Both the position numbers and the translations under genes were made by a program. A DNA stretch of 64,000 bases, taken from the NCBI GenBank assembly GCA_905178155.1, contig CAJINV010000008.1, positions 682,001 through 746,000 of the forward strand. Reading direction: 5' to 3'. Origin of the DNA: Amoebophrya sp. A120. Taxonomy: Eukaryota; Protista; Dinoflagellata. The notes under the pieces are model-generated. The model saw nothing but the letters and a program-made list of their open reading frames with translations, was not told the origin of the DNA and ran no database searches. Below, piece after piece: positions 19,476-40,728 of this stretch; within the stretch, counting starts at the first letter, position 1, and each line of letters begins with the position of its first letter.

Positions 19476-19479
19476 GGTC

Positions 19480-19809: not shown

Positions 19810-21018
19810 CGATGAAATTCGATCATGAGTGATCATTTCTCAGCTGTCCAGGAGCATGAGCGATGAGTGACAATTGAGGACTACACGTACGGGAAGATAT
19901 TGGTGGAGTAGCAGAGTCGTTTGAGCTTATGAGGAGTACGCGTAGCTTTTGTGGTTCGTAGGTCGATATATTCTTCGGAATAAAGACGTAGATGCACGAA
20001 TCAAAGAACGACGATGATGATTTTGGACTCACTGTGATTCCGAACATATAGGCCATGTTTTTTTCGCAATTGGGGACCAAAAAAAGAGGAAGAAGCTGCT
20101 CGTCGGAGGACGACGCGAAAGAAGCACGCCTTTCAGTGCATTTTAGATGTGCCGCCGCTGTGTCCGCCTTATGTAAAGGTCAAAAGTACAAGAAATCCGT
20201 CGATTCGGTCTTCATTTTCATCGCTTTCAGTACTATACTATGTCGGTTTTGATCGTCGTAGTCGTCCGCGGCTGTATTTAGATGGTCGCGCTCGGTTTTA
20301 GATCACGTTTGACTACTTCTAGTTCATTTCCGCCCTGCATCTGTTGCTCGGTCTTCGAGGAGATACGCGTCTCCGCTGTCAGTACTGAGAATACTGCTAA
20401 GAAGCACTTGAGGAAGTACCTTTTGTCGCTCGTTTTCGGTCGCGATTAGCCCCGTTTTTAGTACTATTTTTGTCTGTATTCGCCCGCTATGAGCGCGCCA
20501 TGCAAATCATTGAAAAACCTATGGGACGACGTCTCTGACCGTGTCGAAGTACTAGAGGAACGTATTCTAAAGCTAGAGCAGGATCTACAGAACCGTGAAA
20601 AGAAGACACTACTAAGGTCGGTCGGGGCCGTTTTTAAGAACCTTTTTATGCGCATCATGCCATGCAAGTAAGGTTATTTTTTCGTTACAGTGTTGTAGGT
20701 TTAGGGTTTAGAACAGTTCCCCGTATCTTTTTGCTCGCATTTCACCCAAGGATATCAGTGAATCTGTATTCTACCATGCAAATAGTACCCAGTACGAATA
20801 GTATCAGCGGCGTATCATTATCCTAATCGCGGAGCACATCATGCTCCTTCTCGCGATGTTTTTGTCCTCTTTTTCGGCCCCACGCGGGATCCCGAAGGCG
20901 ATGCGAGACGCCATTAGAGTCATCTTTTTTACGCACAGCGTCACGACTTTGACGTCGATGTTCCGATCGCACGACGCGCTCGACAACCGAGGGGCACACA
21001 CTCTTCCATTTTGTATCG
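19810..21018 (+). repeat. 5' LTR (CGATGAAA...TTGTATCG)
   Basis: Matches 39515-40723; four substitutions seen by eye (19881, 19938, 19941, 20026). Confidence 0.97.
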
Positions 21019-21033
21019 TGGCACCCCTGACGG
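21019..21033 (+). promoter_or_regulatory. Primer-binding site TGGCACCCCTGACGG
   Basis: Directly abuts the 5' LTR and begins TGG, the complement of tRNA CCA. Implied tRNA 3' end ...CCGUCAGGGGUG-CCA resembles tRNA-Arg (inference). Confidence 0.8.
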
Positions 21034-21251
21034 TTAGACAAAGCACCCGCAAAAGATCAACCAAAACAACAAATCATACGGAATCAGACCTGTACCACTT
21101 TTACTATCGCGACCATTATTTAGAAACTGAATCGGCGGTGGCGGAGTTAATAAACAGCAACATAAATAATCGGCGGCGGCACATAGTAACAAGTGTGAGA
21201 GAGTTTTTCACCAAGAAACTAGTAGAGAAGAAGAAGAAAAAAACAAACGAG

Positions 21252-24200
21252 ATGCAGTCCTTCAACTGGCGCGAGCTCCCTACTAAGGAGCAGTTGAAGG
21301 CTGAGAAGGAGCCCCGCAAGAGGCTGGGATTCATTGAAGGGCTGAATCCCAACACGAGGAGCATGTACATCAAGCGCGAACGCTTTTTCGCAACTGTTGC
21401 GATGCATCAGAGCAGCTCCTCCACGACGTTCATGCCGACCTGCATCTCCGGCAAAACGTGGCCGCTGAAGGTGACTAACCTCGCGGGAGAAGATGCTGCG
21501 GAAGAACTCCCGACGTGGATCCAGTGCGCTGTTGTGGTCCCCGCGCTCGAGAGTTTGTCGGAAGAGGTCAAGAAGAAGAAATTACATGTGGCGACGTACT
21601 TCCTCCGCGCCAGGAGCTTCTTGACGTACTTTACGAAGAAGCACACTGCGGACGACAGAGTCCTCATCTGCAAGTGGATCGCGGTCAACGTGTTTACGAT
21701 TTCGACCGACTTTATCACGAAAAACATGCGGTTCGAGGCGGGGGCGAACGGCTTCTTTTCAACACGGATGCTCATGTCGCAGTTTGGTGTTCTGACCGAG
21801 AACGGACAGCCCGTCCCGTACTCCGATTCGATGGACTCCGTGGTCGACAAATGGGTGGAGTACTGGGGTATCGACGAAGAAGGGGTATATGTTGATGATG
21901 ATGCAGATGAAGATTTTTTAGCAAGCATCAGTGACATCGAATGTGTTGAGTTTAAGATTTACGGGGAGGACGACGACCAGTTGTCGAACCTGTTCGCGTA
22001 CGAACCGGCAGCACCAAGCCCGAACAAGGCGCTGATGGGATCCACGTTCGACCAGAAAAATAACAACCTCCTCGCAGAAGGACCAAGCGAACTTCCTACC
22101 CCGGGCCAGATGCAGACGCCAGCGGTCACAACACCGAATAGCAAGAAGCCCGCTGCTTCGATTGCACCTCCTGCTGCTACAACTACCCCCGCCGTTATCC
22201 CGGCCCTGCACGACTACCTGACTAAAATTTTACCGGCACCGGCACCGGCGCAGCAGTCGCAGAACAAACTCCCGATCGTCGACGACGGCCTGCATCAAGT
22301 CCCTTCTACCCCGATGCCGCCTGCATCGCGGAAGCCATCGAAGACAGCTGCTGACACCATGTCGACGAAGGACCAAATTGCAGCGTTGATCGAGGACGTT
22401 TTGATCGAGAAGAGCCCGTTCCCGGTCAAGCACTGCAAGTACCTTACGCCGTACCTGGGTGCAAAGAGCGACGTTTTGTGCTCGGATTATAACACGACTC
22501 TGCGGAAAATCGCCCAGTCGTACGAAGTCCCAGAACAGATGTTGACAGCGCCGAAGATGAAAGCGGGCGGGATGTTCGAAAAGGGTCTGGAGTCGCTGGA
22601 GCTCCCGAAGAGTGCGGCGGTGTTTGGTTTTGAAAAAAATGAAGCGCTGCAAGTAACGGACGCGGAATTCAAATCATTTCCAGTTTTGGAAGACACGCCG
22701 TACAACTGGATCGAGGAGCGCGACTTGATCCTCACCTGGATGTTCCAAACCGCGGACGCACGATCGTACAAGAAGCACCAGCAGCAGTCGCACCTGTACC
22801 CGCTGACGATGTCCGCATTTCGACGCATAACGAAAAAGAAGGTGTCCATGTGGGTGCAATGCATGAGAACTGCGGACCAGAGCCAGACGTTGTCGGTGGC
22901 GCAGCGGTTTTTGAATGGCTTTACCCTCGCGGAGAAGACTTTCGCGCGGGATCAGCAGAACTGGCTCGACGGATCGAAGGCAGGGGAGTACCGGGTCTTG
23001 GTGAAGACTGTGGGAAACTACGTCGACGCGATCTGGTCGGACACCGCGATGGTTTTTCTGGAACTGCAGATGGGATTGTGGACCCTCGTCATGCTCCGGT
23101 TGGCGATCGACTGCGAGCGCGCGGAGAGGTTCAGGATCAGCACGGAGGAGGCCCGGGTGTTACAAGATGTATTTGTCGGACGATGGCCCAAGCTCGAAGA
23201 AATTTTCAACAACGTCTACGACCGCTGCATCCGACCCCATGAGATGCACCAGAGGCGTGCATCCCTCGCCGTCTTTGACGTGTGCCTCGCCGCGATGGGA
23301 GTGTTACAGTCCAACCAGAAAGGAGTAGTCGCGATGGAAAAGAAAACCGATAGAACCGGTGCGATGAACACACCGCAGTACCACCTCCGCGAAAAGAAAA
23401 ACTACTACGTCCCGAAGCAGGACTACGGCACTGTGAGTGGCGTCCAGCAGGTAAAGATGAGCATGGCGTCTGCGCACGGGCTTTTGGCGCAGGGTGATGA
23501 CGACATCGAAGTTTTCGACAACGCGAACCCCCGCTCAGTCGATGCGAGATCCCGATCTGGTACCATGCAGTCCGCTGATGTCCCCATTTGGAGCTGGGAG
23601 ACAGATGAGAACGCATCCTTCGGCGCCGCTGGTAGCGACAAGCTGGCGGGAGTGCCCGACTGCCCCGTGCCGGAGAGCAAACGGTGGACCACCCGGGAGT
23701 ACCAGGCGCACACGGAGTGGTGGGCGCGATGGGAAATGCAGTTGACGGGAGCGCACTTTTTGTACATCGTGTATGACGACGGGAAGGACCTGCGCGGGAT
23801 CAAGGTGTTCGGTCCCGGCCCGAAAGGGGGATCTGAGTGCTTCCTGGCGATTTTTGACTGCTGCTATTCCGGAATGCGTTGCGGATGCGCTGATTTGCAG
23901 GTGGACTCTAAGGCGAAGGAGAGTGCCCGTGCGAAGCTGAAAGACCTCGGAGTCACGCATGCTGATGTCGAACTGGTCCAGAAAGTGCACACCGCGTTTC
24001 TCGCGAGCGGAAAACGGAAGTACTACGAGAAATTTGCCGGGAAAACAACCGCGGAGCAGAAGATTACTGGGGAAGAATATCGAATCCGGAATCCGACGAA
24101 GATTTCCTTCCCGGAATGTGAACAACTCGGTGAACAGTACAGGAACCTCCGTGTTGCGATTCCGACGCCGAGTGGATTTATTACGGAAGCAGGACCGGAA

Positions 24201-24284
24201 ATTTTAACTGCCGAAGAGAAGGCGCGGCTCCAGGAGCTGAAGACCCTCCTCGGACGAGTCCAAGTCTCGCAGCTTTTTCAGTAG
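21252..24284 (+). CDS. ORF1, Gag-position protein (about 1010 aa)
   Basis: First in-frame ATG downstream of the PBS (MQSFNW...). The ORF-track start at 20841 lies inside the LTR. Gag identity rests on position only; no CCHC knuckle recognised. Confidence 0.7.
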   Translation: MQSFNWRELPTKEQLKAEKEPRKRLGFIEGLNPNTRSMYIKRERFFATVAMHQSSSSTTFMPTCISGKTWPLKVTNLAGEDAAEELPTWIQCAVVVPALESLSEEVKKKKLHVATYFLRARSFLTYFTKKHTADDRVLICKWIAVNVFTISTDFITKNMRFEAGANGFFSTRMLMSQFGVLTENGQPVPYSDSMDSVVDKWVEYWGIDEEGVYVDDDADEDFLASISDIECVEFKIYGEDDDQLSNLFAYEPAAPSPNKALMGSTFDQKNNNLLAEGPSELPTPGQMQTPAVTTPNSKKPAASIAPPAATTTPAVIPALHDYLTKILPAPAPAQQSQNKLPIVDDGLHQVPSTPMPPASRKPSKTAADTMSTKDQIAALIEDVLIEKSPFPVKHCKYLTPYLGAKSDVLCSDYNTTLRKIAQSYEVPEQMLTAPKMKAGGMFEKGLESLELPKSAAVFGFEKNEALQVTDAEFKSFPVLEDTPYNWIEERDLILTWMFQTADARSYKKHQQQSHLYPLTMSAFRRITKKKVSMWVQCMRTADQSQTLSVAQRFLNGFTLAEKTFARDQQNWLDGSKAGEYRVLVKTVGNYVDAIWSDTAMVFLELQMGLWTLVMLRLAIDCERAERFRISTEEARVLQDVFVGRWPKLEEIFNNVYDRCIRPHEMHQRRASLAVFDVCLAAMGVLQSNQKGVVAMEKKTDRTGAMNTPQYHLREKKNYYVPKQDYGTVSGVQQVKMSMASAHGLLAQGDDDIEVFDNANPRSVDARSRSGTMQSADVPIWSWETDENASFGAAGSDKLAGVPDCPVPESKRWTTREYQAHTEWWARWEMQLTGAHFLYIVYDDGKDLRGIKVFGPGPKGGSECFLAIFDCCYSGMRCGCADLQVDSKAKESARAKLKDLGVTHADVELVQKVHTAFLASGKRKYYEKFAGKTTAEQKITGEEYRIRNPTKISFPECEQLGEQYRNLRVAIPTPSGFITEAGPEILTAEEKARLQELKTLLGRVQVSQLFQ

Positions 24285-24324
24285 ACCCCTCTATCGCACC
24301 GAAATTTTATACCGGTAGAGGGGT
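24272..24324 (+). promoter_or_regulatory. Candidate -1 ribosomal frameshift signal
   Basis: G CTT TTT, 6-nt spacer CAGTAG, then 12-bp stem ACCCCTCTATCG / CGGTAGAGGGGT (24285-24324). ORF2 is in the -1 frame, which is open across the ORF1 end. Confidence 0.6.
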
Positions 24325-27300
24325 GATCAACGAAGAAGAAGATTTTTTCAACAACTATGATTTTTTTGAGGACGGAGAACTTCTTGATGTCTTTTGCACC
24401 CCGTGCGTCGCAGAAACAAACTTCCTCATGATCGAAAACGACGCGACGCCCAGCTCTAGCGAGTGGGACGGCGGGGTCAGCGTTGATGACAGTTTTGAGG
24501 AACAGGGCGCTTCATTTTCCCTTTTCTCCGTCGGGATCACCGCACGAAATTTTGAAGAGCGTGTAGACATTGCGGCACGAGAAGCAGCAGAATTTAACTG
24601 GGACGAGTGGATTCGCAGTGATGGGTGGAAAGCGGAAACGTTTTCAGTAACAATCACGACCCACGATTCGTCGCTGCGTTCCGCCCCTACGCTCGACATC
24701 TCGACGACGAGCGAGTTCAAGATCCCGGACGATCTAGCCGAGGCGTGCGGTGGCGAAGACCACAAGAGCGCAATCGCGGGGTTCGGAAAATACCTATCTG
24801 AAAACAAAAATGTAGTACGCGAATTTTTGAAGCGGTTCATCGATCGGAACTGCGAGACACCTGCTGATAGAGCCCAACTTGTGCATGACTACCAGTCCGA
24901 GCTTTGTGCGGGGCACATTTACGCGAAGATTTTGAACTTTGCGCTTTTTGGGGCGTCGTCGACCAGCGGGTCCCGACAATTGGAGACACCACCGCTGCCG
25001 TGTACCGGCACCACAGGGCACGATGTTGAATTTTCGCAGGCCGACGTTGTTGACCCACCAGAGCGGATTAGGCGTCTGTGGGAACGTGCAGACACGCTAG
25101 TCAAACTCTTCCAGGAGGAATGTTCACGGTTCGACTGGGAAGAATGCGTGCACGTGTGGAAGCAGAGCATCGACTCGTTGGAATTTGCTGTCGTAAATAA
25201 AACGACCGGAGCACTCCTTGGAACTCCAGGCGAATCCTGCCCCCGTATTTCGATCCAACGAGGATCTTCGGAGTTGGGGAACCCGTTCGTACTCCCTGTG
25301 GATGACCAGTCGGACCGAACGCGTGCTGACGTCTGCGTGAAATTTGGTCGGTTCCTCGGCACTGCGGACGCGGAAGCGATGGCCCGCACTTTCCTGCATA
25401 AGAAAGAGGTCTACACGAAGGTGGTAGGTAGCAAAAGATGCGTTTTTGAATGTAGTTGTGCTCCGGAACTCTGTCATGGTGTTATCTGGGCAAAAGCATT
25501 CCAAGTATTCAAGGAGAAGTGGTTCTCAACGCTCGCTGCGACAAAGTCGCCGACACCAGCACGAGCTTCTGTACCCCGCGAGCAGATACGGACATTCGGA
25601 GCATTGCAGAGTGCCTCCTTCTTGACGGACGACGCAGTGGATTTTGGCGATTCGAAATCGTGCCTCATCGAGTTCGACGCGGAGGAAATACTGCCGTTCT
25701 CGCTTGTCGTCACACGCCCTGCGTTGACATCGGCGTTGCTAGCCGACAGGTCGTACGACGAAGAATTTTCACCGTCAGTCGCTATTGCTGCAGATCAACT
25801 CGAAGAAGAGAAGCAAGAATTTTTCAATGCGGCGCAGCATCCCGAGAGTGTTCTTCTTGCAGCAGAAGGAGCAGCGGACGAACTGTCACCAGAATCTGTC
25901 GAGTATGGCGCTCATTTGTACGACGCGATATCCGCAGGACCGGCGGAGGAAGAAAATTTATTACGCTCAACGCCACTTGTGGCCGGTCCTGCGGTAGAGG
26001 CGATGATACAACCGCAGGACCGGATCCGGTATTCTTCTAACGCTTTTCATTTTGAAAATAGCATGAAGAACGATCCGGTCCTTGTTGATGATGATTGTCA
26101 TGTGTCCCCTGAGCTGTCGCTCCCTTCCCCTAAACTACAACAACAGCGTGGTGACAGCGACGACAGCGACTCGTGTCCCGACCTCGCGCAGATAGCGGCA
26201 GAATTTCGTATGGCAACTGAAATTCCGTGCCAATCGATGGCGGACTACATCGAATTCCTCACGGCCGTGACCAAGTGTGAGTACTTGTTTGAGCAAGACG
26301 AGATCGCAATGGGGTACGAAGCGGGGTGGGCGACGCGTCACCATGGGAAGGTGGATGGAGTACCAGGGTCGATGGACTTTGTCGAGTTCCCGCAGGCGTC
26401 ACGATGGACGGTTTTGCGAAGACCGCATGTTGAGGATCGATCGCTGCAGAGGAAGCATACATTTTTGTACTTCAAGAACAATGGCCGCGTTTCTCGGCTA
26501 CAACGTGCAGGAAACGATCCGGAAAAATTTTATTACCACGGCGAAAAGGACGTCTTGGACTTCGTCGCGCTCCCGCGAACTGTTCGATTTGTTTCAACGG
26601 AACGGTCTGGATCTCATGAAACAATTCTTATGAGTCTCGCGGCGTTGGAATACAGCGACGTCTTGCCTGCGATCTTGAGCCCGATGCTCTGTGAGCCCCC
26701 GTGTACTTTGACAGATCTCCCACAAATCGACTCTGACCCTAGCCTGGGGCTACCGTCACGGCAATTCTACCATGTTGCGAAAACCATGAAAGAAGGTGGT
26801 GTCGCGACTGTGTGGGGTGTGTTTGGTGCTGGAAAGAGTCGGAGTATCGCAGCAGTAATCGCTGAATTGATCAAGAAGAACGTGTACAACAAAATCCATT
26901 TTGCGGCGACGCAGAATGTCGCTCTCGACTCGGTCCTGAAGCGACTTACGAATTTGAAGATCTCTGTCGTCCGATACAGCAGTAAAGCGTACATCGAGAG
27001 GGCCGGCGCGACGAGCACCTGCGATTTGGAAAACGTTGCTGCGAAAGTTGCGAAACGGCGTGCCAAATCTGCGTTCGCGGAATATGAAAAAATAAAGAAG
27101 CGGAGGTCTGTCATGCTCAAGAAGAAAGCACTTTTCCCCAAGGTGGAGAAGAAATACCTCCAGGTAAAGAAAGAATGTGTCGAGATTGTCAACAGAAACA
27201 CGAAGTGCTTTTGCTCTACTGCGTCGAGCCGTCCGGCAACGGGGACGACGAGCGAGCTGACGATTTACGACGAAGCAGGTCAAAGTACCGAGTTTGCCGC

Positions 27301-30300
27301 AGCGACAATCCTGGTCGGGACAAAGCGAGTGATCATGGTTGGTGACCAGAACCAGTTAGGGCCGGTATTGAAATCGACGCGCAAGAACAAGAGGCACAAA
27401 GCGGTAGACGGGCTGGTAGATACGATATTCGAGGAAAGCATCGACGTCGAGGTCTGCGGAGAGAGCATTTTTGCTCGACTCGTCGAAAAAGGGCGCGGAG
27501 CGACAGTTTTCATCGACACCCAATACCGTTGTCCTCCGGTGCTTGCGGACTTTCTATCGGAGGAATTCTATGGTGGAAAACTAAAATCAGCACCGTCGGC
27601 TCCTGCAGAAGCGAAATACAGCTTCGAGACGCCTGTTGTGTCCGTGCGCACGAGTGCGGACATACTCCTCGCAGGGCAGCAGTCTCCGGACGGAAAACTC
27701 CCACCGTACATCTCCCCGTCAACAATCGCGGCTGCGAGCCGGATCCGGCAAATTCTGCTAGATAAGGGCGTCACCGCGGCCGACATCAAAGCGGTCAGTG
27801 TGTATCGTGCGGGGAATGAAATAAAATCCCGCGTTGCTCCGATGACAATAGCAGGTGTCGACTCGTACCAAGGAGGAGAAGTGCAAATTCTGTTCGCGTT
27901 CATCATGTGTCCGAAGTCTGGTCCGACGATCTGGGTCGCTAACAGGAAACGGATCCTTGTTCTCCTTTCGCGCGCCGTGTCGTGTTTGTTCGCTTTCATG
28001 CCCGACGAGGTTGAACGTGAAGAAGGATGCCTCGAGAGGTTCAGCAAGTACACGAAAACAACGGAGAAGTGCCTTCATATCCAGAACCCAGAGGATGCCG
28101 TGAAGATGGCGGTCAAGAAAGCGCCGGAAGTGATCATAACGACCGCGGAAAGCACCTGCGAGCCTGCTGTTGTCGAGCACATCGTCACTGACCTCGACGG
28201 GGGTGAATCACACGCACCTGAATCGCCGTGGTGTTCTTCGAACATGATGTCTGCTTGCCTCGGCGCTCCTGCAGATGGCGGGATGCACAAGATTACAGAA
28301 GCAGTCGACACCGAGGATTTGATGTATTTTGACTTCGAATCGCAGGCAGATCTTGTTTCTGATGACTCCGTTATCGCAGCGCTTCGTGGCGACAGCGATG
28401 CTGCCGTATCCGCGATCCGCGACGCAGAAGCTGCGTGTACTGGCCTATGGCTAGATCCCCACGCCTTCGGAGAAATCACCGCTGGCACCCTTCGGGTGGT
28501 CGCGCCTCTCGCGCCAGAAGATACACTGAAAAGCGGAAAGAACCGGTACGGAAATAAGGAGATTTCAGCACACGAGGTTTTCCGCACGAAGAACGGATGC
28601 AGTGTGTGGATCGGTAACTATGCGGCAGCAGTAGCAGAGAAGAAAAATTTCGACACGCATATCAACATGACTGCGAATGTAGAAGAGATCGACGGATGCA
28701 ACTACCACTACCGCGTTCCGCTAGTTTTTGGCGCCCTCCGGCGGAACATCAGGTCTGTCCGCATGAAGTTCAAGACAGTTCTCCGGCGCGTTCACGCGGG
28801 AAAGAAGGTATTGTTTTTCTGTGTCGCCGGGAAGGACCGTTCGTCTCAAGGCGCAAGAATGTTGGCGTACTTCCTTGACGCCGAACGACCGGCGCTCGAG
28901 ATCCAGCAGATTATTTCTACTGCGAGGCCAGAAATTCGGTACTCTTTTCCCCGGCTGGACAACTTCTTCACACAAATCATCGCTGCTGATACTTCAACAC
29001 GAATCCGGCTTCTTGACCCCGACAACACACGTATTGAACTTCTCGTCGAGGACGCAAAGGCGAACATGGCTTCTTCTTTTTTTTCGCTTGACCCAGACGT
29101 TGTCGCAGAAGATCGGTCAGAGGTCCCCCCTGTTATCCAGACGACAGCGCCGGCAGTCGCGGAGATCCCACAGTCGAACTTCGTGTACCGCAGGACAGCT
29201 ATTGCGAGCCACACGTACAGCCGCAATTGGAGACTTATGAATTACAACCCGGACTCGCTCAACTCGTTTTTTGAAAACAGACCAGAACATGTAGACGCGC
29301 TTTTCGAGTACCGCTCTGCGACGACAATATTCCCAGAGACGAAGCTAACTGAGGACACAGCGACGATTGCGACGAAGAATCTGGAGAAGAAGGGGCATGA
29401 TGTCGTGCATTTTTTGAACGAAGATAAGAAAGGAGAGCATGGTCTTTCTGTCGCGACACCGAAGGGCGAGCTCGCAGAGGGGCAGCTGCTTCCGCACTCC
29501 ATCACCCGTGGTCCGTCGCGGGAAGGACGGCTTGCACTTTTGGAATACGAGAATTTTTTTGTCGTCGCGGAGTATGCCCCGAATCGGCGTCCAGGACAGT
29601 ATGAGCAGTATGACACTGACATCCGGGGGTACCTCCGGGAGCTGGTGAAGAATCTCCGAAAACCATTCATCTTGTGTGGTGATCGGAACGTCACCCCGGA
29701 AGCACGTGACGTTTCAGCGCACCCCCGGTACTCCGACAACATACCATCGACGCGCGAAGTCGAAGATCGTGTTCCGTATCGCGCACTGATCGAAGAATTT
29801 GATCTTGTTGACGCGTGGCGCGCTTTGAACCCCGATGCTGAAGGGCACTACACATCGTTCTACCAGCAGGGAAACCTCTTACGACAAAACGCAGGAGTGC
29901 GGATCGACTTGTTTCTCGTGCAGAAACCGCTTATGAAGTTTGTCAAGCACTGCGGCATCGTGACCACGATTCACAAGGCGAAAGGGGACCACCACCCAAT
30001 CTACCTCGACATGCTTCTTGATTTCGGAACAGAAACACTCCGGCAAAAAGCACGAGAAGGGCTTGACTTCGTGCGATCTCTCCCTGTCGGTGACGACCCT
30101 GCTGTCGCGACCGCGCGTGCGCGAAACGCGACCCCTTTCGTAGGATATCGAGAATTCTTTTCCACGTTCAACACCCTCGATCTTGAAGGGGACGAAGAGC
30201 AGGCGTCGAAAGACGACGAGGAGGACGAGGATGAGGAGCCAGATGCTCCTGGTGGAGAGTCGGAAAAAGACGCATTCAAGGCGCTAGACATGCTCATGGA

Positions 30301-33300
30301 GGGGTTCCAGGACGCGTGTGCGGAAGCGTTCGCGAAGTTCGACACGAAGAAGGAATATTTGAAAGTCGTTTCTGTTCTGCAAGAATGGGTCGATGGAAAG
30401 AAGGCAGCGGGGTTTTCGTGTAGCACGATTTTCCAGATGCTCATGATGGACGACGCGACCGCCGCCATCTTTGGTGTCGGCGACGCAATGCTGAAACTCC
30501 TTCTCAACATCGGCGCCGCGAAGAAGCTGAATTGCAAATTTGGCAGCAAAAAGACTCAGACCCTCTCGGGGTTTGCGAAGTCCTGCGGGTACATCGTACA
30601 AGGAGGGTGGATTTCGGTGCCAGCAGCTCTCGTTAATGACCTCCGCGCGATGGCGCGGATCCCACCAACACCACGTCTTTGCCGCAGGTTGCTGGGGAAG
30701 CTTGCGTTTGCGCCGACAGCGCTCGCGATGGAATATTCGCGCATCCTGCCTACTCTGACAGCGTTATCGCGGAAAACAATGCAGCAGTACTTGAAGGACG
30801 CTTTGACAGAAGAGTCGATCGCAGCGTTCGAAATAATTATCAACTCAGCTGCAATAAACCCGCTGTGTCCGATCGACTGGGAGAAGGTCGATTCTGGGTT
30901 GTGGATCCCGCTGGGACAACCAGATGGTCATGCAGTTGGATGGGGTGCAGTTTTGATCACGATCGACCGCGAATGTTTCTTCTCGGACGCAGTAGACAAT
31001 GTTCGCGACTTCATCCGGATTCACGGGATCAAATCGGCTCCGTTCCCAGAGCGACTCCGATACCGGTGCCCCGCCGAATCTGAAACATACGCGAGCTTGG
31101 GGTATCACCAGTACCTCGACTACTTGATGCAGAACAGGACGCGATATTGGACGAACGATAATTCCAACGTGGGCCAGATCGAGACTGAGATGCACCGCTG
31201 CTCGGTGAAATCTTGGAACACAGCAATCGGGTACTTGGCGCGATTTTTCCAATCCCCGGGTCTTGAACGGCTGGTCCTTCCGGAGTCGCTGCTTGTATGG
31301 GCAGACTGCGCGGGAAGAATGCATAAGAACTGCGTCGTAGCGCAGACACTGGTCCAGCAGTTGGTCGCGTCACCAAAGAAGCTTCTTGCAGTTCTTTTCC
31401 CGCATGTTGATTTCGACAAGAGAGACAAAATCTCTGAGAAAGAGAAGGAAGAGTTCAAGAAAGCAGCGGCGGCAGCAATGACGACTTCTTCGTTCCGTGT
31501 CGCAATTTCGCCTGAGGGAGAAGATGTCGTTGATCCATCGCGTGGGGGTGAATCTGCATTCCTCCTAGTTCAGGGTCAGGAGTTCCCGACACCGGAGACT
31601 TTGCCGGGATTTGAGTACCCGGAGGGCCCGATTTTTTCGGAAGAGAATTTCGACGACGCAACGTTTTTGCACGGATCTTTCTTCCCATCGCAGGTGCGAG
31701 ACGTGATCGAGGATGAAGAAGAAGAGAAGCCGCTCTACCAGTATAAGATTACTTCTGTGGAGCGCAGTGCAGCGATCCTGTCCACCATAAAGTCACGCGC
31801 AGATCGGATTCGAGTTTTCGAATTCGATCAAGTTTTCTTTGACGACGATGACTACACGCTGGCGCGAAAGGGACTACTCCTCCTCAAAACAAGGACGAAA
31901 ACTTCTTCGGAATTTTGGCTGGTGATGGCGCACGACGTTCTTCGTGGGACAGCTGCGGTGGAAGCTGCGCTTGCAGAGATTGTAGGGATCAAAATAACGC
32001 AAGAACAGTTTTTAGACCGGTACTGTGGCGAGTTTAGCCACAAGGTGACTTCTGACAAGTATCCGCTCCGTGTCGTCGCGCACACCTCTGTTCGAGAAGT
32101 CTACTGCAACTACGGCGCACAGCAATTTGTGGATTTCTCGCACTCCGTGAGTATGGTGTACTACACGCCCCGCAGTGGGTATGAGGAATTCCGGTACCCA
32201 ATGACTACCGGTATAAACGTCCTCCGGATTAGACAAAAATCAGTTGGATCATCGCAGATCGAAGACCTCGAGCTTCTCTTCCGCATCCGCGAATTCCGGG
32301 TTGATGATAGTGTTGCCGTGCGCGCTTGCGAACATCTTCCGATTCTCGACTTGATCAACCCGCGTCTCGCTTCTTGTTTCCATGACTCGACGACAAATTT
32401 TGGATTTGCAAAGAGGACCGCTGAAGAAGACGATTTTCTTGCCGAGAAGCGCAAGAGGGGATCCATGGACGAGAACTCACTCGAGGCCGAAGAAGGAGAT
32501 TTTTTTTGCCCGCAGTCGGACGCAGAAATTTTACCCGAGGGGGGTACGGCCTCGGCAAAAGACGGGGAGGACACCGCCTCGGCAAAAGAAGGAGGCGCGG
32601 GAGTGTCGCCAGAGCAGAAAAAGCCGTTGTATTTCCGGATGGATTCTGATGATGAAGAGATAAATGACGACGGCGAGACAACAGAGTTGATCAACCTCAT
32701 CAAGAAACGGAAGAAGCCAATCACGATCCACGACGTGCACGACATTTACCGGAGTCTGATCAAAAACTCTGACTTCGTTGGGATGCCGAATCTCCTCCGG
32801 CAGCTCCCGGGTGCGAAGAAGAGCGAAGATCGCGGTCCGATCAAGTTGACAGACGATGAACTTCTCGCGCTACATCAACGCGACTTCCACCGCCCTGCTA
32901 AGGAGCTAGCGTGGGCGCTCTCGTGTGCGGGGTACGAAGTAACAGAAGAACGGTGCAAGAAGATCATTACTTTCAAGTGCTACTGTCGCGGGGTGAAGTT
33001 TAATCGACACTATCCGAAAAAACGCGCAAGCTTGAACCCGCCTTCGGTGCACGATTGGCATGCTGATCTTCTCTACTGCAAGTGGTCTGACGGAGTCCTC
33101 CACCTCCGCGACAGAATTCCGGAGTACGACGAGAAACCGCTCACGAAGGAAGAATGGTCGAAGGTCGATCGCGCAGACATTTACTCCATGATTGGCACTG
33201 GCATGTGGGACAGCGACACGGTTCCGGTGGAGCGGGAAAGCATGACGAAACAGTTTATCAGATGCGAATCGTCGAAGGGGTTCAACGTTAAGTGCTTCTT

Positions 33301-36300
33301 CCTCAACGTCAGCGACACCCGTGCACGCGGACAAGCAGTGCTTTCTTTGCCAAGCGTAAAAACAGACGTCCCTCTTAACCCGTTTTTTGCACCGGACCGC
33401 GCGACAGGAGTCGTCTCGGAGCAGCAATTTATGTTCAAATGTCTTTGGGGAGATTTGCATCCGATCGCACTCGAGCTGCAACTTTCGCGAGAAGAAAAAT
33501 GCAGCCTGGTCAACGCGAAAATGGGGATGATGTCGTCGGTCAACATGGAGTGGCTCTTGCCAGGGCGCGACACGCTTTTCCAAGTGCAACGGTCTCTTGT
33601 CGGTCTTGTCGATCTGCACCTCGTCCGGGTCATGATGCAACCCCGCGTACAGCGAATGCTTCGTGCTCGTACGCGCGACAGGTATGGCTTGATGATGCCT
33701 CCGACACGTGACACGAGTGTGAACAAGCAGGAACTGATCCTCTTCGAACATCCGCAGCACGGCCTTGTGGAAGGAACACTTGAAGCACAAAAGAGCAACA
33801 CGATTGCTGCTGCTGGTGGTCGGACGTACGTGGTCATCGGAGAAGCCGCTTTGCACGAGCGAGCGCGCCGTGCGAAATTTCCGTACTCGTACTTTGCGAC
33901 TTTCCCGCGGCACGTTGCTTTGAAAATCAACCTTGTGTACGGTGACTGGAGTTCCTACTTGGTCAAACCCCTGCAGAGCGACCCGATTGAAGGCCCTGTG
34001 AGTGGTGCTGTGATTGAAGAAGCATGGCGGCAAGCGTCTCTACAACCAGCTGGGTTTTTTCGTGTCCGCGCAGGAGGACAGCACGCCCTCGCTTTTGAGG
34101 CGAAGCAGGGCGAGCCAGTGATTCACACAATTGGATTGCACAAGATCGAGACGGGTATTTTGTGCTTTACGCGGTCTTCTCCTGTTCTTGGGGCACCCCG
34201 GCACATATACGGGTACCGTATCCCCAACGGGATCGCCGTAAACGGCGTCCGGAGAGATGCGATGTACTGGCAGTGGCATACACACGTCCCCGGAAGTTAC
34301 GATGCGGAAACAGCAGAGGACGCTTTCTCAGTAACAGCGCGTCTATGGCTGAAGCGAATTGATCTTGAACAATGGGCTGGATCCGGCCGGTTCAACGCGC
34401 TCGGCGGCGTTGATGAATTTGAAGACACACGGCCCGCTCCTTCTGTCGCCCCTGTCGTTGTGGCGCCCACTGTACGACAACGAGATGAGCCGTTCTTCGC
34501 GTCTATTTTCCACGAAGCTGCTTCTTTAGCTGCGCTGTCCGCTCGCGTGCGCAGGATCCCGGAACAGATTGCGAAGTCTGTCGTCCAAACGCCATCTGGA
34601 TTCGAAGTAGTCTTGGGTGACAATAGGCTCCTCCTCGTCGAAAACACACAACTAAACGAATGGCGGTTCGAGACGAAGAACCGCGAAACAACATGCCTTC
34701 AGTTGTTTGCAGAAAATTCAGAGGACAGCACATCCGCATTTTCTGCTTGCGGTCTTGCGGTCGAAGCTGCTTCCGTCGCAAATTCCCCGGGAACCTCGTT
34801 GTACAAGCTGACGGAAGCGTGCTACCAGTACACTGCTGGTGGATCGTGGGACGAGGAAGATGCGGTTTGCTATTTCAATGCAGCTCGTGTGGCACCGGGA
34901 GATTCCGTTCCAGAACAGTACGTCACGTGCAAAGTTTTTTTCGATGCTGCAGACGCCCTGGAACAACATTTCCTGCCATCGGATTTTGAACTAGAAGAAC
35001 CGCACGATCCCGGAATTCCTTCCTTCTGTCGCGTGCGTGAATCGACGACAGCAGAGAGCATAGTCGCAGCACAAGAAAAGCAACTAGAAGATGCTGTGAA
35101 GCCGCCCGTGGAAGTCGCGGGGACAGTTGCGAAGGGTCAGTTTTCGGACCGCGTCGTGGACTCTGTCGACATTGTGATCGACGCAGTCCGGAAGGGAGAA
35201 ATTGTTGCAGGGCACGACTTAGATGCGTTCGAGAAGAACGCGTTCTACATCGGAAAACACCTCCCCGGGCTCGCGTACTACTTGCGGGACCGCGTCGCAC
35301 TGCTAATTGCGCGATTAGACGCACCGGAAACTCCACCAGAGGGCTCTACGTGGGAAGAGATTCGACAGTATGTTGTCGACTTCATCGTCTCTGCCATCAC
35401 TGATACCGGGTGTGTCGCAGGACCCCAGTTTGATGTCGAAGGCGCGAAGACGCGGCTCCGCGGGTGGGTTGAAGGATGCAAATTGCGGAAAGAAAAAGAG
35501 GCAGAGGAGATTTTCCAGTCGTTGCTGGCCATCCTCGAGTCACCTTCTGGCGTGCATGACCGCGCGCGACTCGACTTGTGCAATGGGACTATCACTCTGT
35601 CGACTGCTGAGGCCACAGGACCACATGCAATCGAAGTTCTCCTCCGCCACTTTCAAGGACAGGCGCACCTCGTGTCGGGGTTTACCGGAGGGAGCCGTGA
35701 TACGAACCCGGCTGTTCTAAGGATGCGGGTGTACCTCCAGGACAGTCGGACCGGACGACTCCACCTCACACCATGGCTAAATCAATATGTCATGAGGTGT
35801 TGGGGTCGATCTGCCCCGAAATGCGAAACGCTTGGGTTTGCATTTGGTGTTTGTGACCTCGTCAAACTCGGTTACCGTCCTTGCGGGCTCGAGAGCGCGT
35901 TCAACTTCCCAAACGGCGCGGCACTACATGTTGCGAACCTCATCAAGCTGCGAGGTGCTTCTCCTGGAACAGAGACGGCAACAGTAAAAGCAGTGCAGTC
36001 CCGCTTCCTGACAGCGCCAGGCGAACAAGACGGTGACTTGACGCTCGTTGCCGGGCAGACTGCAACTGCGGTGATCCGTGTTGATAACTTTCTCGCAGGG
36101 CAGCGGATTTGCATCTTCTTTTCGAACCCCGGAGACAACGAGCGACTGATTTTGACGCACAATGGGACCGTCGTTCCTCTCGTGATGCCAGTGCCTTCGT
36201 CACGGGAGATTCGCCTATCGGTGGAAACGACGAAGCAGCGAGTGAAGATTAAGAACGCAAATATCGGGCTGACGATGAAACCGCTGGACGGGGAGGACCC

Positions 36301-37435
36301 GGTCCATTTTCGACAGCAACTGGAGGTCGTCGGAAGCGAAATTGGCCTCGATGCTGCAATGCGTGTCCTCGACCCCGATGTAGACGACGACATCGCCGAA
36401 GAAGAGACGACGGATGCGACTTTTGGAGCCGCCGGAGCAGTGAGTACGAATCCAGACTTGACCCCAGAGTACCTCGAGAACTGCAAACGCGAACACGAAG
36501 ACTTTATGAAGACTCTGAACTCTTCGAACGAAGGATCGTCGCAGTTCCAAGCAGAGCTCTACCTCCAGCTGTTGCGGACGATGAACTACGGCTCACTTCG
36601 TCGCGCATGTGAAAAAGACGGGTACGACATCGAGGAGACGATTTCTTTGTGGGAGGCGTTTTGTTTTGCGATCGCGGCGTGGGCAGGGCATTCCGGGTTC
36701 ATGACAGATGGTCATCAAATACCAAAATTCGATTTCCCGGGGTGTGGCGTGGAACTACTGAACCCCCACGCTTCGGTGGACCCACAGCCCCGTCGTGTGC
36801 GGAACCCTCCGGAGTTGGATTGGATTCTCGGGCAGCTGGCTACTCAGGACGTATCAGTCGGGATAATCGAACTTTTCGATTCTTTGAAGCACGGATTTGT
36901 GCGGTTCTGTTCGAACACGATGTGGGCGAAGAGGTCGAAACTCTACCAGGGGCGCATCGTGAACATCTACAAAACACCGAACAAAATCGCGAACCCGTGT
37001 TTTTGTTACAGCATAATACCGTCACAGATCCTCGAGACGCTCCGCCATTCGAGCTGCGTCGGCTACTTGGAATTGGACATAAAACGCGCGTTCCAGGGGA
37101 TTCAAGTCCACTTGGAATTATCCTTGTGGCTCAGTCTTGTCATCGGAACTGAAATCTACCTGCCGAACCGCGCCAGCCTGGGATTTGCCCCATGGCCTGG
37201 CATTTTTGGGCAACTGACGACCCCGCTGTTCGCGTCGCTGAAGTGCGGACCAGCAGCTGCGATGCAGTTTTTTTCCGAGATGCGAGGCCCACTTGCAGAG
37301 CTACATGAAGCACTAAAAGTTGCAGGGCTTGCTGGTCGATACAAGTCGATTGCAGAAGGATATCGAGCACACGTGACGCACCAAAAGCAGCAGCTGAACG
37401 CCTCCCAGAGGAGTGGGGGAGGACAGTTAGCATAG
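24323..37435 (+). CDS. ORF2, 4370-aa polyprotein: DUF4326 - SF1 helicase - DSP phosphatase - ExoIII/APE - RT C-half/RNase H - CYTH-like - integrase - JAB-like - protease-like - RT N-half
   Basis: Uninterrupted 13.1-kb ORF; individual motifs are listed in the domain features. Confidence 0.9.
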   Translation: MINEEEDFFNNYDFFEDGELLDVFCTPCVAETNFLMIENDATPSSSEWDGGVSVDDSFEEQGASFSLFSVGITARNFEERVDIAAREAAEFNWDEWIRSDGWKAETFSVTITTHDSSLRSAPTLDISTTSEFKIPDDLAEACGGEDHKSAIAGFGKYLSENKNVVREFLKRFIDRNCETPADRAQLVHDYQSELCAGHIYAKILNFALFGASSTSGSRQLETPPLPCTGTTGHDVEFSQADVVDPPERIRRLWERADTLVKLFQEECSRFDWEECVHVWKQSIDSLEFAVVNKTTGALLGTPGESCPRISIQRGSSELGNPFVLPVDDQSDRTRADVCVKFGRFLGTADAEAMARTFLHKKEVYTKVVGSKRCVFECSCAPELCHGVIWAKAFQVFKEKWFSTLAATKSPTPARASVPREQIRTFGALQSASFLTDDAVDFGDSKSCLIEFDAEEILPFSLVVTRPALTSALLADRSYDEEFSPSVAIAADQLEEEKQEFFNAAQHPESVLLAAEGAADELSPESVEYGAHLYDAISAGPAEEENLLRSTPLVAGPAVEAMIQPQDRIRYSSNAFHFENSMKNDPVLVDDDCHVSPELSLPSPKLQQQRGDSDDSDSCPDLAQIAAEFRMATEIPCQSMADYIEFLTAVTKCEYLFEQDEIAMGYEAGWATRHHGKVDGVPGSMDFVEFPQASRWTVLRRPHVEDRSLQRKHTFLYFKNNGRVSRLQRAGNDPEKFYYHGEKDVLDFVALPRTVRFVSTERSGSHETILMSLAALEYSDVLPAILSPMLCEPPCTLTDLPQIDSDPSLGLPSRQFYHVAKTMKEGGVATVWGVFGAGKSRSIAAVIAELIKKNVYNKIHFAATQNVALDSVLKRLTNLKISVVRYSSKAYIERAGATSTCDLENVAAKVAKRRAKSAFAEYEKIKKRRSVMLKKKALFPKVEKKYLQVKKECVEIVNRNTKCFCSTASSRPATGTTSELTIYDEAGQSTEFAAATILVGTKRVIMVGDQNQLGPVLKSTRKNKRHKAVDGLVDTIFEESIDVEVCGESIFARLVEKGRGATVFIDTQYRCPPVLADFLSEEFYGGKLKSAPSAPAEAKYSFETPVVSVRTSADILLAGQQSPDGKLPPYISPSTIAAASRIRQILLDKGVTAADIKAVSVYRAGNEIKSRVAPMTIAGVDSYQGGEVQILFAFIMCPKSGPTIWVANRKRILVLLSRAVSCLFAFMPDEVEREEGCLERFSKYTKTTEKCLHIQNPEDAVKMAVKKAPEVIITTAESTCEPAVVEHIVTDLDGGESHAPESPWCSSNMMSACLGAPADGGMHKITEAVDTEDLMYFDFESQADLVSDDSVIAALRGDSDAAVSAIRDAEAACTGLWLDPHAFGEITAGTLRVVAPLAPEDTLKSGKNRYGNKEISAHEVFRTKNGCSVWIGNYAAAVAEKKNFDTHINMTANVEEIDGCNYHYRVPLVFGALRRNIRSVRMKFKTVLRRVHAGKKVLFFCVAGKDRSSQGARMLAYFLDAERPALEIQQIISTARPEIRYSFPRLDNFFTQIIAADTSTRIRLLDPDNTRIELLVEDAKANMASSFFSLDPDVVAEDRSEVPPVIQTTAPAVAEIPQSNFVYRRTAIASHTYSRNWRLMNYNPDSLNSFFENRPEHVDALFEYRSATTIFPETKLTEDTATIATKNLEKKGHDVVHFLNEDKKGEHGLSVATPKGELAEGQLLPHSITRGPSREGRLALLEYENFFVVAEYAPNRRPGQYEQYDTDIRGYLRELVKNLRKPFILCGDRNVTPEARDVSAHPRYSDNIPSTREVEDRVPYRALIEEFDLVDAWRALNPDAEGHYTSFYQQGNLLRQNAGVRIDLFLVQKPLMKFVKHCGIVTTIHKAKGDHHPIYLDMLLDFGTETLRQKAREGLDFVRSLPVGDDPAVATARARNATPFVGYREFFSTFNTLDLEGDEEQASKDDEEDEDEEPDAPGGESEKDAFKALDMLMEGFQDACAEAFAKFDTKKEYLKVVSVLQEWVDGKKAAGFSCSTIFQMLMMDDATAAIFGVGDAMLKLLLNIGAAKKLNCKFGSKKTQTLSGFAKSCGYIVQGGWISVPAALVNDLRAMARIPPTPRLCRRLLGKLAFAPTALAMEYSRILPTLTALSRKTMQQYLKDALTEESIAAFEIIINSAAINPLCPIDWEKVDSGLWIPLGQPDGHAVGWGAVLITIDRECFFSDAVDNVRDFIRIHGIKSAPFPERLRYRCPAESETYASLGYHQYLDYLMQNRTRYWTNDNSNVGQIETEMHRCSVKSWNTAIGYLARFFQSPGLERLVLPESLLVWADCAGRMHKNCVVAQTLVQQLVASPKKLLAVLFPHVDFDKRDKISEKEKEEFKKAAAAAMTTSSFRVAISPEGEDVVDPSRGGESAFLLVQGQEFPTPETLPGFEYPEGPIFSEENFDDATFLHGSFFPSQVRDVIEDEEEEKPLYQYKITSVERSAAILSTIKSRADRIRVFEFDQVFFDDDDYTLARKGLLLLKTRTKTSSEFWLVMAHDVLRGTAAVEAALAEIVGIKITQEQFLDRYCGEFSHKVTSDKYPLRVVAHTSVREVYCNYGAQQFVDFSHSVSMVYYTPRSGYEEFRYPMTTGINVLRIRQKSVGSSQIEDLELLFRIREFRVDDSVAVRACEHLPILDLINPRLASCFHDSTTNFGFAKRTAEEDDFLAEKRKRGSMDENSLEAEEGDFFCPQSDAEILPEGGTASAKDGEDTASAKEGGAGVSPEQKKPLYFRMDSDDEEINDDGETTELINLIKKRKKPITIHDVHDIYRSLIKNSDFVGMPNLLRQLPGAKKSEDRGPIKLTDDELLALHQRDFHRPAKELAWALSCAGYEVTEERCKKIITFKCYCRGVKFNRHYPKKRASLNPPSVHDWHADLLYCKWSDGVLHLRDRIPEYDEKPLTKEEWSKVDRADIYSMIGTGMWDSDTVPVERESMTKQFIRCESSKGFNVKCFFLNVSDTRARGQAVLSLPSVKTDVPLNPFFAPDRATGVVSEQQFMFKCLWGDLHPIALELQLSREEKCSLVNAKMGMMSSVNMEWLLPGRDTLFQVQRSLVGLVDLHLVRVMMQPRVQRMLRARTRDRYGLMMPPTRDTSVNKQELILFEHPQHGLVEGTLEAQKSNTIAAAGGRTYVVIGEAALHERARRAKFPYSYFATFPRHVALKINLVYGDWSSYLVKPLQSDPIEGPVSGAVIEEAWRQASLQPAGFFRVRAGGQHALAFEAKQGEPVIHTIGLHKIETGILCFTRSSPVLGAPRHIYGYRIPNGIAVNGVRRDAMYWQWHTHVPGSYDAETAEDAFSVTARLWLKRIDLEQWAGSGRFNALGGVDEFEDTRPAPSVAPVVVAPTVRQRDEPFFASIFHEAASLAALSARVRRIPEQIAKSVVQTPSGFEVVLGDNRLLLVENTQLNEWRFETKNRETTCLQLFAENSEDSTSAFSACGLAVEAASVANSPGTSLYKLTEACYQYTAGGSWDEEDAVCYFNAARVAPGDSVPEQYVTCKVFFDAADALEQHFLPSDFELEEPHDPGIPSFCRVRESTTAESIVAAQEKQLEDAVKPPVEVAGTVAKGQFSDRVVDSVDIVIDAVRKGEIVAGHDLDAFEKNAFYIGKHLPGLAYYLRDRVALLIARLDAPETPPEGSTWEEIRQYVVDFIVSAITDTGCVAGPQFDVEGAKTRLRGWVEGCKLRKEKEAEEIFQSLLAILESPSGVHDRARLDLCNGTITLSTAEATGPHAIEVLLRHFQGQAHLVSGFTGGSRDTNPAVLRMRVYLQDSRTGRLHLTPWLNQYVMRCWGRSAPKCETLGFAFGVCDLVKLGYRPCGLESAFNFPNGAALHVANLIKLRGASPGTETATVKAVQSRFLTAPGEQDGDLTLVAGQTATAVIRVDNFLAGQRICIFFSNPGDNERLILTHNGTVVPLVMPVPSSREIRLSVETTKQRVKIKNANIGLTMKPLDGEDPVHFRQQLEVVGSEIGLDAAMRVLDPDVDDDIAEEETTDATFGAAGAVSTNPDLTPEYLENCKREHEDFMKTLNSSNEGSSQFQAELYLQLLRTMNYGSLRRACEKDGYDIEETISLWEAFCFAIAAWAGHSGFMTDGHQIPKFDFPGCGVELLNPHASVDPQPRRVRNPPELDWILGQLATQDVSVGIIELFDSLKHGFVRFCSNTMWAKRSKLYQGRIVNIYKTPNKIANPCFCYSIIPSQILETLRHSSCVGYLELDIKRAFQGIQVHLELSLWLSLVIGTEIYLPNRASLGFAPWPGIFGQLTTPLFASLKCGPAAAMQFFSEMRGPLAELHEALKVAGLAGRYKSIAEGYRAHVTHQKQQLNASQRSGGGQLA
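25187..25503 (+). other. DUF4326-like domain in ORF2
   Basis: ISIQRGSSELGNPF ... RADVCVKF ... FECSCAPELCHGVIW fits the IGR.S.WGNPF / C.C.P..CHG pattern. Confidence 0.7.
26750..28060 (+). other. Upf1/DNA2-like superfamily 1 helicase domain in ORF2
   Basis: Walker A GVFGAGKS (26816-26839), ATQNVALD, IYDEAGQ, VGDQNQLGP, QYRCPP, VDSYQGGE, VLLSRA. Confidence 0.92.
28560..28980 (+). other. Dual-specificity phosphatase domain in ORF2
   Basis: VWIGNYAAA, HINMT, KVLFFCVAGKDRS (CX5R at 28820-28840), ARPEI. Confidence 0.88.
29225..30010 (+). other. Exonuclease III / AP endonuclease (EEP) domain in ORF2
   Basis: LMNYNP, PETK, EGR, YAPN, ILCGDRNV, LVDAWR, YTSFY, GVRIDLFLV, GDHHPI. Confidence 0.92.
30420..31320 (+). 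other. RT C-terminal half (motif C, thumb, connection) plus Ty3-type RNase H
   Basis: QMLMMDD (MMDD 30443-30454), KTQ...SCGYIV, PPTPRLCRRLLGKLAF, PDGHAVGWGAVL, CPAESETYA, TNDNSNV, VWADCAGR. Confidence 0.82.
31730..32300 (+). other. Degenerate CYTH-like domain in ORF2
   Basis: FDQVFFDDDDYTLARKGLLLLKTR resembles CYTH D.YFD..d..L....LR.R; the ExExK motif is not preserved (QYK). Confidence 0.4.
32850..33800 (+). other. Integrase-like domain (HHCC zinc site plus divergent core)
   Basis: LHQRDFH...KCYC, WHADLLY (first D), FAPDRATG...QF (second D); third acidic residue not evident. Confidence 0.68.
34130..34335 (+). other. JAB/MPN+-like motif in ORF2
   Basis: IETGILC ... WHTHVPGSYDAETAED approximates E...HxH-x7-S-x2-D, with an 8-residue spacer and T for S. 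Confidence 0.45.
35555..35880 (+). other. Retropepsin-like protease domain, divergent
   Basis: RARLDLCNGTITLS (for ALLDTGA...IS), VSGFTGG flap, FAFGVCDLVKLG (for ILG.DFL..g); lies upstream of the RT N-half as in gypsy pol. Confidence 0.5.
36740..37240 (+). other. RT N-terminal half (fingers, motifs A and B); no motif C before the stop
   Basis: DPQPRR, VGIIE, FCSNTMWAKR, GRIVNIYKTPNK, LELDIKRAFQGIQV (motif A, D at 37076), YLPNRASLGFAPWPGIF (motif B). Confidence 0.88.
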
Positions 37436-40723: not shown

Positions 40724-40728
40724 CTGTC

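Follow-up and report, generated by a model that had tools for sequence, protein, structure and literature searches.

An ExoA/APE1-type nuclease domain with a predicted role at DNA ends in the polyprotein of a 20.9-kb LTR retrotransposon of Amoebophrya sp. A120

We analyzed a 64,000-nucleotide (nt) stretch of the genome of the dinoflagellate Amoebophrya sp. A120 (contig CAJINV010000008.1, positions 682,001 to 746,000 of the forward strand, assembly GCA_905178155.1), referred to below as the window. It contains an intact 20.9-kb long terminal repeat (LTR) retrotransposon with a 5-bp target-site duplication. A nuclease domain of the ExoIII/ExoA/APE1 family lies within the second open reading frame (ORF2) of this element. 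The domain is of the cellular type and not of the type found in long interspersed nuclear elements (LINEs), and it may trim or repair the 3' ends of the element's own complementary DNA (cDNA). The features of the element, in window coordinates, are listed here.

19805..19809, plus strand: left copy of the target-site duplication, 5 bp; the same 5 bases stand at 40724-40728, and lengths of 3, 4, 6 and 7 fail to match
19810..21018, plus strand: 5' LTR, 1209 nt, with ends CGAT...ATCG and not TG...CA; 4 mismatches to the 3' LTR
20802..24284, plus strand: ORF1, 1160 amino acids (aa) stop to stop, in the Gag position, no Pfam match; homologous to ORF1 of the relative L001 (E 7e-24)
21019..21036, plus strand: primer-binding-site (PBS)-like stretch starting with TGG, directly after the 5' LTR; putative role from its position
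24134..37435, plus strand: ORF2, an open frame for a 4433-aa polyprotein, overlapping ORF1 in the -1 frame
25244..25486, plus strand: DUF4326 domain (Pfam PF14216, 28.8 bits, cut-off 25)
26771..27991, plus strand: superfamily-1 (SF1) helicase, Upf1/IGHMBP2-like (Pfam AAA_11 and AAA_12; TIGR00376 at 5e-22, below its cut-off)
28607..28939, plus strand: dual-specificity-phosphatase (DSP)-like domain, CxxGxxRS motif at 28820 (Pfam DSPc, E 0.002, below cut-off)
29225..30010, plus strand: ExoIII/ExoA/APE1-family nuclease domain, from sequence profile, structure and alignment comparisons
30011..30355, plus strand: linker that contains an acidic run and joins the nuclease to the C-terminal half of reverse transcriptase (RT), seen in the sequence
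30356..30853, plus strand: RT C-terminal half (RT-C) with MMDD at 30443-30454, palm strands and thumb; the family profile matches MMLV, CaMV and Ty3 RT (best E 1.6e-7)
30851..31393, plus strand: RNase H-like domain with a D, E, D, D pattern recognized by eye in alignments, no library match
32711..33733, plus strand: integrase-like domain, H-H-C-C followed by two conserved Asp, by motifs
35336..35878, plus strand: aspartic-protease-like domain with a DTG motif and a long insert, at motif level in an alignment of 12 members
36791..37303, plus strand: RT N-terminal half (RT-N), the last domain of ORF2 (Pfam RVT_1 no better than E 0.27; match to the relative P0016)
38198..38974, plus strand: ORF3, an open frame of 258 aa, basic and coiled-coil-like, with no clear family in a library scan
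39502..39514, plus strand: purine-rich stretch directly 5' of the 3' LTR, in the position of a polypurine tract (PPT); putative role
39515..40723, plus strand: 3' LTR, by repeat match to the 5' LTR
40724..40728, plus strand: right copy of the target-site duplication, by match to the left flank

Along ORF2 the domains follow in the order DUF4326, SF1 helicase, DSP-like phosphatase, ExoIII-family nuclease, RT-C, RNase H-like, integrase-like, protease-like and RT-N. The nuclease comprises aa 1698-1959 of the frame 24134-37435. A first-pass annotation of this DNA had placed it at 29225-30010, directly upstream of the catalytic half of RT. The position was correct, but 147 aa, including the acidic linker, separate the nuclease from the RT DD motif, and the half that follows carries two of the RT aspartates; the first belongs to RT-N, at the opposite end of ORF2. 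We take the RT catalytic triad to be three aspartates.

The nuclease matched TIGR00633 with 99.6 bits (E 2e-28), passing the cut-off of 99.05 by a narrow margin. Its best sequence matches in the PDB were Bacillus subtilis ExoA (5e-17) and human APE1 (2e-15), and none of the 52 PDB matches at E<=1 was a LINE endonuclease. The family nuclease profile scored ExoA at 118 bits, APE1 at about 95, Escherichia coli ExoIII at 78, yeast Apn2 at 64 and the LINE-1 endonuclease at 49. A structure model was obtained from six family members (predicted local distance difference test, pLDDT, 74; predicted template modeling score, pTM, 0.81); a single-sequence fold of 770 aa had a pLDDT of 37 and was unusable. 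The model has the DNase I-like four-layer fold, and Foldseek matched it to APE1. Among 48,161 chains, its top match was B. subtilis ExoA (5CFE; Z 26.3, root-mean-square deviation 2.8 over 241 residues). Structures of the APE2/Apn2 subfamily reached Z 23.3 and 22.6, and the LINE-type endonucleases were weaker matches (LINE-1, Z 22.9; TRAS1 and R1Bm, Z 17.9). The top Atlas cluster for the nuclease was 49% viral, mostly Nucleocytoviricota.

These results bear out the first-pass annotation, which had seen a cellular ExoIII/APE1-type domain and not a LINE one. The five motifs it named are all in frame (EGR at 29522, YAPN at 29573, LVDAWR at 29804, YTSFY at 29849 and RIDLFLV at 29900). The domain is not closer to LINE endonucleases than to cellular enzymes, either by profile score (49 versus 118 bits) or by structural similarity (Z 22.9 and 17.9 versus 26.3). 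The nuclease domain is of the cellular (ExoA/APE1) type.

The catalytic residues of the window's domain are N1705, E1735, Y1814, D1850, N1852, D1925, D1952 and H1953, which we take to match N68, E96, Y171, D210, N212, D283, D308 and H309 of APE1. As the first-pass annotation had stated, they are kept; alignment showed all eight columns intact in each of the eight element domains found in the family. The abasic-site pocket is altered at two positions.

29855..29857, plus strand: Ser1908 at the APE1 F266 pocket position, aligned with the Ala of the F266A structure 5WN3
29897..29899, plus strand: Val1922 at the APE1 W280 pocket position, from the alignment

The aromatic F266/W280 pocket of APE1/ExoA-type apurinic/apyrimidinic (AP) endonucleases is therefore lacking in the window, where Ser and Val take these places. 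All 61 prokaryotic and viral references have an aromatic residue in the F266 column. None of the eight element domains does; they have Ser (five domains), His, Ala and Gly, while the aromatics two before and one after this column are retained in all eight. Sixty columns are at least 90% conserved in the references, and only 2 of them are lost in all eight element domains. At the W280 column, the 61 references have W, L or F; the six type-I element domains have V, M, S, Q, E and Y, and the type-II domains have gaps (the two types are described below). The references were collected with a bacterial ExoA-type query, a sample without APE2-like enzymes.

Statements from the literature, here and below, refer to parts of the cited papers. 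In APE1, the F266A change makes exonuclease digestion about 20- to 50-fold faster, and the APE2 enzyme, without the F266/W280 pocket, favors exonuclease substrates (PMC5785985); PMC6122073 agrees with this account. Loss of the F266 pocket residue in 8/8 element domains thus provides a specific sequence argument for a bias towards end processing or exonuclease activity, and the suggestion of the first-pass annotation that the domain may help to process ends appears strengthened by it. A widened substrate pocket likely makes the nuclease a trimmer of DNA ends.

The same columns bear on a role mainly as an AP endonuclease, which would act in base-excision repair, either of cDNA that is damaged or contains uracil or of integration gaps. 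ExoA and APE1 are the closest enzymes by profile and fold, and the residue at the APE1 D70 position is acidic, as in APE1. Against such a role stand the loss of F266 in every element domain and the substitutions at W280 in all six type-I domains, and no glycosylase domain occurred among the Pfam matches of the 11 polyproteins scanned. We regard a mainly AP-endonuclease function as quite unlikely.

Relatives of the element were collected by a HMMER search of 1.84 billion representative proteins with the query 30251-33433, which leaves out the nuclease; this returned 26 proteins. Sixteen rows were mapped and 12 members counted, including the window's own; P0023 was dropped as part of the P0046 cluster, and P0010, P0011 and P0016 as fragments that do not cover the N-terminal zone. 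Profile scans revealed an ExoIII-family domain in 8/12 members. By four profiles it is absent from the proteins P0012, P0017, P0018 and P0020, where a separate ORF is possible, and P0012, with only about 480 aa before RT-C, may be incomplete. The P0022 domain gave E 0.039 on a profile without element rows and 75 bits with P0019, and its motifs are kept. The first-pass annotation had named two outcomes fatal to its proposal, an inactive domain or absence from most members; with intact catalytic columns and presence in 8 of 12, neither appears to apply.

Among the nine members with a helicase, in which the N-terminal zone is covered, the nuclease occurs in six. Polyproteins without it measure 5038 aa (P0017), 4237 aa (P0020) and 3695 aa (P0018), and those with it 4020-5265 aa; a rank test on these very small samples (n=6 versus n=3) gave p 0.26 for polyprotein length. 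The nuclease is therefore not present in all large members, being missing in 3/9, and the existence of equally large relatives without it suggests that it is probably an optional helper and not the key to size. Nuclease and RT DD motif are separated by 147 aa in the window and by 180, 186, 195, 320, 349, 1342 (P0027) and 2091 aa (P0003) in the others; in P0003 the nuclease precedes RT-N instead of RT-C. On the simplest reading of these arrangements, the nuclease would usually be the last module of a variable accessory zone. PP2C lies between the helicase and RT-C in P0018, and NADAR occurs in P0023/P0046.

ExoN has a proofreading role in large nidoviruses. Missing RT proofreading is commonly given as a reason why retroelement size is limited, and we know of no reverse transcriptase with a proofreading domain. 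By analogy with ExoN, the nuclease might be a true RT proofreader whose fidelity allows a 21-kb genome with a 13-kb frame. Such a role would suit the pocket change toward exonuclease, a constraint as strong as that on RT, the keeping of two very different nuclease versions in the family, and a nuclease placed 147-349 aa before the RT DD motif in 6/8 members and, in P0003, immediately upstream of the other RT half. In the strong form proposed by the first-pass annotation, however, the analogy did not hold up: 3/9 members (P0017, P0018 and P0020) lack the nuclease without having shorter polyproteins on the small-sample rank test, at least 3 changes in its presence are needed on the core-domain tree, and adjacency to RT is not fixed, as the gaps in P0027 (1342 aa) and P0003 (2091 aa) illustrate. 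The longest end branches of that tree (1.55 and 1.41) belong to P0027 and P0046, which carry the nuclease, and the acidic residue at the D70 position is also unfavorable. For Burro and Ogre, of 25-30 kb, no exonuclease is named in the part of PMC6431247 considered. A true proofreader is thus unlikely. Equally doubtful is the wider claim that this would be the first retroelement-encoded proofreading exonuclease, an ExoA-type enzyme possibly captured twice, with its pocket opened, that edits the cDNA 3' end for a two-piece RT; Ser at the F266 position occurs in both the type-I and the type-II versions.

In the comparison of the window with P0004, the nuclease was 42% identical, RT-N 48% and the protease 44%; RT-C, RNase H, integrase and helicase reached 32-34%, and linkers 21-30%. 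Between the window and L001, the proportion of non-synonymous differences (pN) was 0.42, and synonymous sites were saturated. Near-identical cluster members differ at only 10, 15, 5 and 3 residues. The sequence comparisons indicate that the nuclease is under long-term constraint, conserved like RT and protease. Decay of the nuclease was considered and rejected, since the catalytic columns and the conservation are intact.

This conservation is relevant to a conflict role, in which the nuclease, with the helicase, phosphatases and NADAR, would act against the host or other mobile elements by degrading foreign or exposed nucleic acid or by undoing host attack. Helicase, DSP, PP2C, NADAR and DUF4326 come and go between members, the nuclease evolves fast, and anti-viral functions have been proposed for accessory retrotransposon domains (PMC6338049). 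The core-level conservation between P0001 and P0004 would be unusual for an arms race, and a conflict role appears improbable.

Trees were built from the element domains and 61 prokaryotic and viral references, with no eukaryotic APE1/APE2 or LINE rows. Six type-I domains formed a clade with support of 100/99 and 100/100 in two models, and P0019 and P0022 (type II) formed another; P0019 is 18-20% identical to type I. The element domains are on very long branches. The placement of types I and II among the 61 references was unstable, and a single joint clade was not rejected (approximately unbiased test, p-AU 0.23). On the core-domain tree, type I needs 3 changes and falls on both sides of the midpoint, a pattern that fits an old capture with repeated loss; transfer between elements is also possible.

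We assign a probability of about 0.5 to the reading that the nuclease is an optional 3'-end trimming or repair enzyme for the element's own cDNA and not its integration nuclease; it is considered optional because 4/12 members lack it. The source of the nuclease may be an ExoA-type gene of a cell or a giant virus, captured early in the history of the family. It would be translated with Pol through a -1 shift and then packaged in the particle, and would remove mismatched, damaged or blocked 3' nucleotides from the cDNA during synthesis and strand transfer. The cleaned 3' ends would let RT resume after stalls or strand transfers and would be fit for integrase. Its site before the RT half probably marks where an N-terminal accessory zone (helicase, phosphatases, NADAR, DUF4326) gives way to the core enzymes.

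Several observations weigh against this end-trimming role. The APE1 D70 column is D/E in 6/6 type-I domains and Asn in 51 of the 54 references readable there (7/61 were not), and in APE1 D70 dampens 3'-end cleaning and mismatch exonuclease activity (PMC2665217). APE1 N174 is retained in just 4/8 element domains, and the very long branches mean that rules derived from APE1 may not transfer. The integrase-like domain, to which the trimmed ends would be passed, was recognized by motifs only; across 13 members H-H-C-C and two Asp are kept and the third acid is not conserved.

The unusual integrase also leaves room for a nuclease that nicks target DNA for integration, as the LINE APE does, compensating for a domain that has no conserved third acid and is not recognized by libraries. 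Comparisons of the integrase-like domain with Pfam, PDB, Atlas and copia integrase were blank, which is not evidence against an integrase, and the LTRs and the 5-bp duplication fit integrase-type insertion. Target nicking by the nuclease is very improbable: the nuclease is not LINE-type, the LTRs are near-identical with inverted ends and a clean 5-bp duplication, and this integrase-like domain is also present in the members that lack the nuclease.

The host element resembles Ty3/gypsy in its LTRs, target-site duplication and PBS and PPT positions, and differs from a LINE, which would have no LTRs and an intact APE-RT ORF. Its RT is of the LTR/retroviral class, with profile matches to MMLV, CaMV, foamy and Ty3 RT, among which gypsy and its sister groups are not separable. 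The Ty3/gypsy order protease (PR), RT, RNase H (RH), integrase (IN) with a contiguous RT is not found; the window has RT-C, RH, IN, PR, RT-N. The RT-N half is 29% identical to the same part of P0016 (E 4e-18), which has both halves in order; an alignment of RT-N gave no RT match in the PDB, its profile being dominated by flanks. The family shows three arrangements of the RT halves: permuted, consecutive with about 150-220 aa between them, and consecutive but separated by about 1750 aa. On the core tree, 3 changes are required for the permuted arrangement. The split falls after the fingers/palm half (30356-30853 and 36791-37303 in the window; also P0003, P0016, P0017 and P0020).

A 16,900-nt short-read contig equals 20989-37888 with zero differences, although the run may be the source sample and so is not independent. 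Its depth was 88 at the LTR versus 44.5 in the element body. Depth and identity are consistent with one young full copy of the element. Because this contig runs through 20989-37888 without a difference, a join error is unlikely, and an assembly artefact was rejected since the same domain order occurs in L001/P0004 and P0005. The same run also contains a second, diverged element, whose matches fall within the nuclease, at the RT DD motif/RT-C and at RNase H, in the order seen in the window. Three RNA runs from other samples with the same species label contained 1-2 partial reads each and are uninformative on expression.

The closest named relatives come from Amoebophrya AT5.2 and A25. No relatives of the element were found in the viral contigs or prokaryote genomes searched. 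Word-index searches missed the family, whether made with the nuclease alone, with nuclease, RT-C and RNase H (longer proteins) or with the family alignment, which gave one bacterial-type match. No LTR pair was found within the 23 kb of L001, and LTRs are therefore demonstrated for the window's element only. L001 has long ORFs behind ORF2 without a Pfam match (18475-21561, 1028 aa; 21752-23167, at least 472 aa), unlike the window, which holds only the 258-aa ORF3 there. The -1 overlap of ORF1 and ORF2 spans 24134-24284 in the window and 3947-4028 in L001; L001 has a standard slippery site, G GGT TTT, in the ORF1 frame, and in the window there is only G CTT TTT, immediately ahead of the stop codon of ORF1. 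The accessory modules PP2C, NADAR, DSP, DUF4326 and SF1 helicase vary in P0018, P0022, P0023/P0046 and P0004, and DUF4326 is placed differently in P0001, P0004 and P0022. At aa 465-1289, the Amoebophrya AT5.2 gene model P0005 starts with copia-type integrase and RT matches, probably a neighboring or nested element fused by the gene caller.

The four differences between the LTRs are all transitions and lie within 146 of 1209 nt (19881-20026; P about 0.006 under an even spread), for which a template switch, conversion or an assembly effect are candidate causes. The element is inserted in an array of 31-bp tandem repeats, which extends to either side of it (19486-19808 and 40746-41182). Elsewhere the window holds short terminal-inverted-repeat elements (3011-3270, 6420-6786, 12345-12616, 45780-47708, 54041-54309 and others), which we take to be like miniature inverted-repeat transposable elements or introners, and host genes for a DegT/DnrJ aminotransferase (60535-61560), EMP70 (48961-49842) and a DNAAF5-like repeat protein (7555-8691).

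An LTR family of more than 20 kb with an intact, retuned and very long retained ExoIII domain would permit a direct test of self-supplied editing or end repair in retroelements, with the advantages of a single soluble 265-aa domain, clear expectations set by APE1 mutants, and natural relatives that either have or lack the nuclease. Should the nuclease be only an optional end-cleaning helper, it would still add a new case to the known captures of DEDDy, AlkB and methyltransferase enzymes. In the literature, APE is a mark of non-LTR elements and Helentrons (PMC5718144, PMC6431247), and other accessory domains listed for LTR elements are a chromodomain, DEDDy exonuclease, SF1 helicase, AlkB and adenine methyltransferase (PMC6338049, PMC5408684, PMC9289625, 10.64898/2026.05.21.726589). 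The Amoebophrya genome paper, in the part considered, mentions families of LTR and non-LTR elements briefly and leaves the detail to a supplementary figure (PMC7789003). In literature searches judged by titles and the starts of abstracts, outside subscription journals, Repbase and GyDB, no ExoIII/APE domain was described for an LTR retrotransposon.

Compared with known systems, the element nuclease shares its fold, all catalytic residues and TIGR00633 with cellular ExoA/APE1 and giant-virus ExoIII-family genes. It differs from both in lying inside a retrotransposon polyprotein, in the loss of the aromatic pocket and in its very long branches. APE2/Apn2 is likewise without the F266/W280 pocket and prefers exonuclease substrates (PMC5785985), but scores below ExoA and APE1 (64 versus 118 and 95 bits; Z 23.3 and 22.6 versus 26.3), so the likeness to APE2, which is not in the trees, is probably convergent. 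The AP-endonuclease domains of LINEs and Helentrons belong to the same superfamily and also lie inside mobile elements (PMC5718144, PMC6431247); they match more weakly than the cellular enzymes, and the host element here has LTRs and RNase H, protease-like and integrase-like domains. Giant Ty3/gypsy elements (Burro, Ogre) share the LTRs, 5-bp duplication, ORF1/ORF2 overlap, LTR-type RT and size above 20 kb, whereas the split, permuted RT, the protease-like domain behind the integrase-like one, the CGAT...ATCG ends and the large, enzyme-rich accessory zone set the present element apart. The rotifer Juno/Vesta DEDDy 3'-5' exonuclease ORF3, whose role is untested, and the AlkB domain of 25-kb orchid Gypsy elements are likewise captured processing or repair enzymes of patchy distribution (PMC5408684, PMC9289625), but they have other folds and separate ORFs, whereas the nuclease described here is in frame in Pol. 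By these comparisons, the element is an LTR retrotransposon with a captured processing enzyme, of which the ExoIII-family version appears new.

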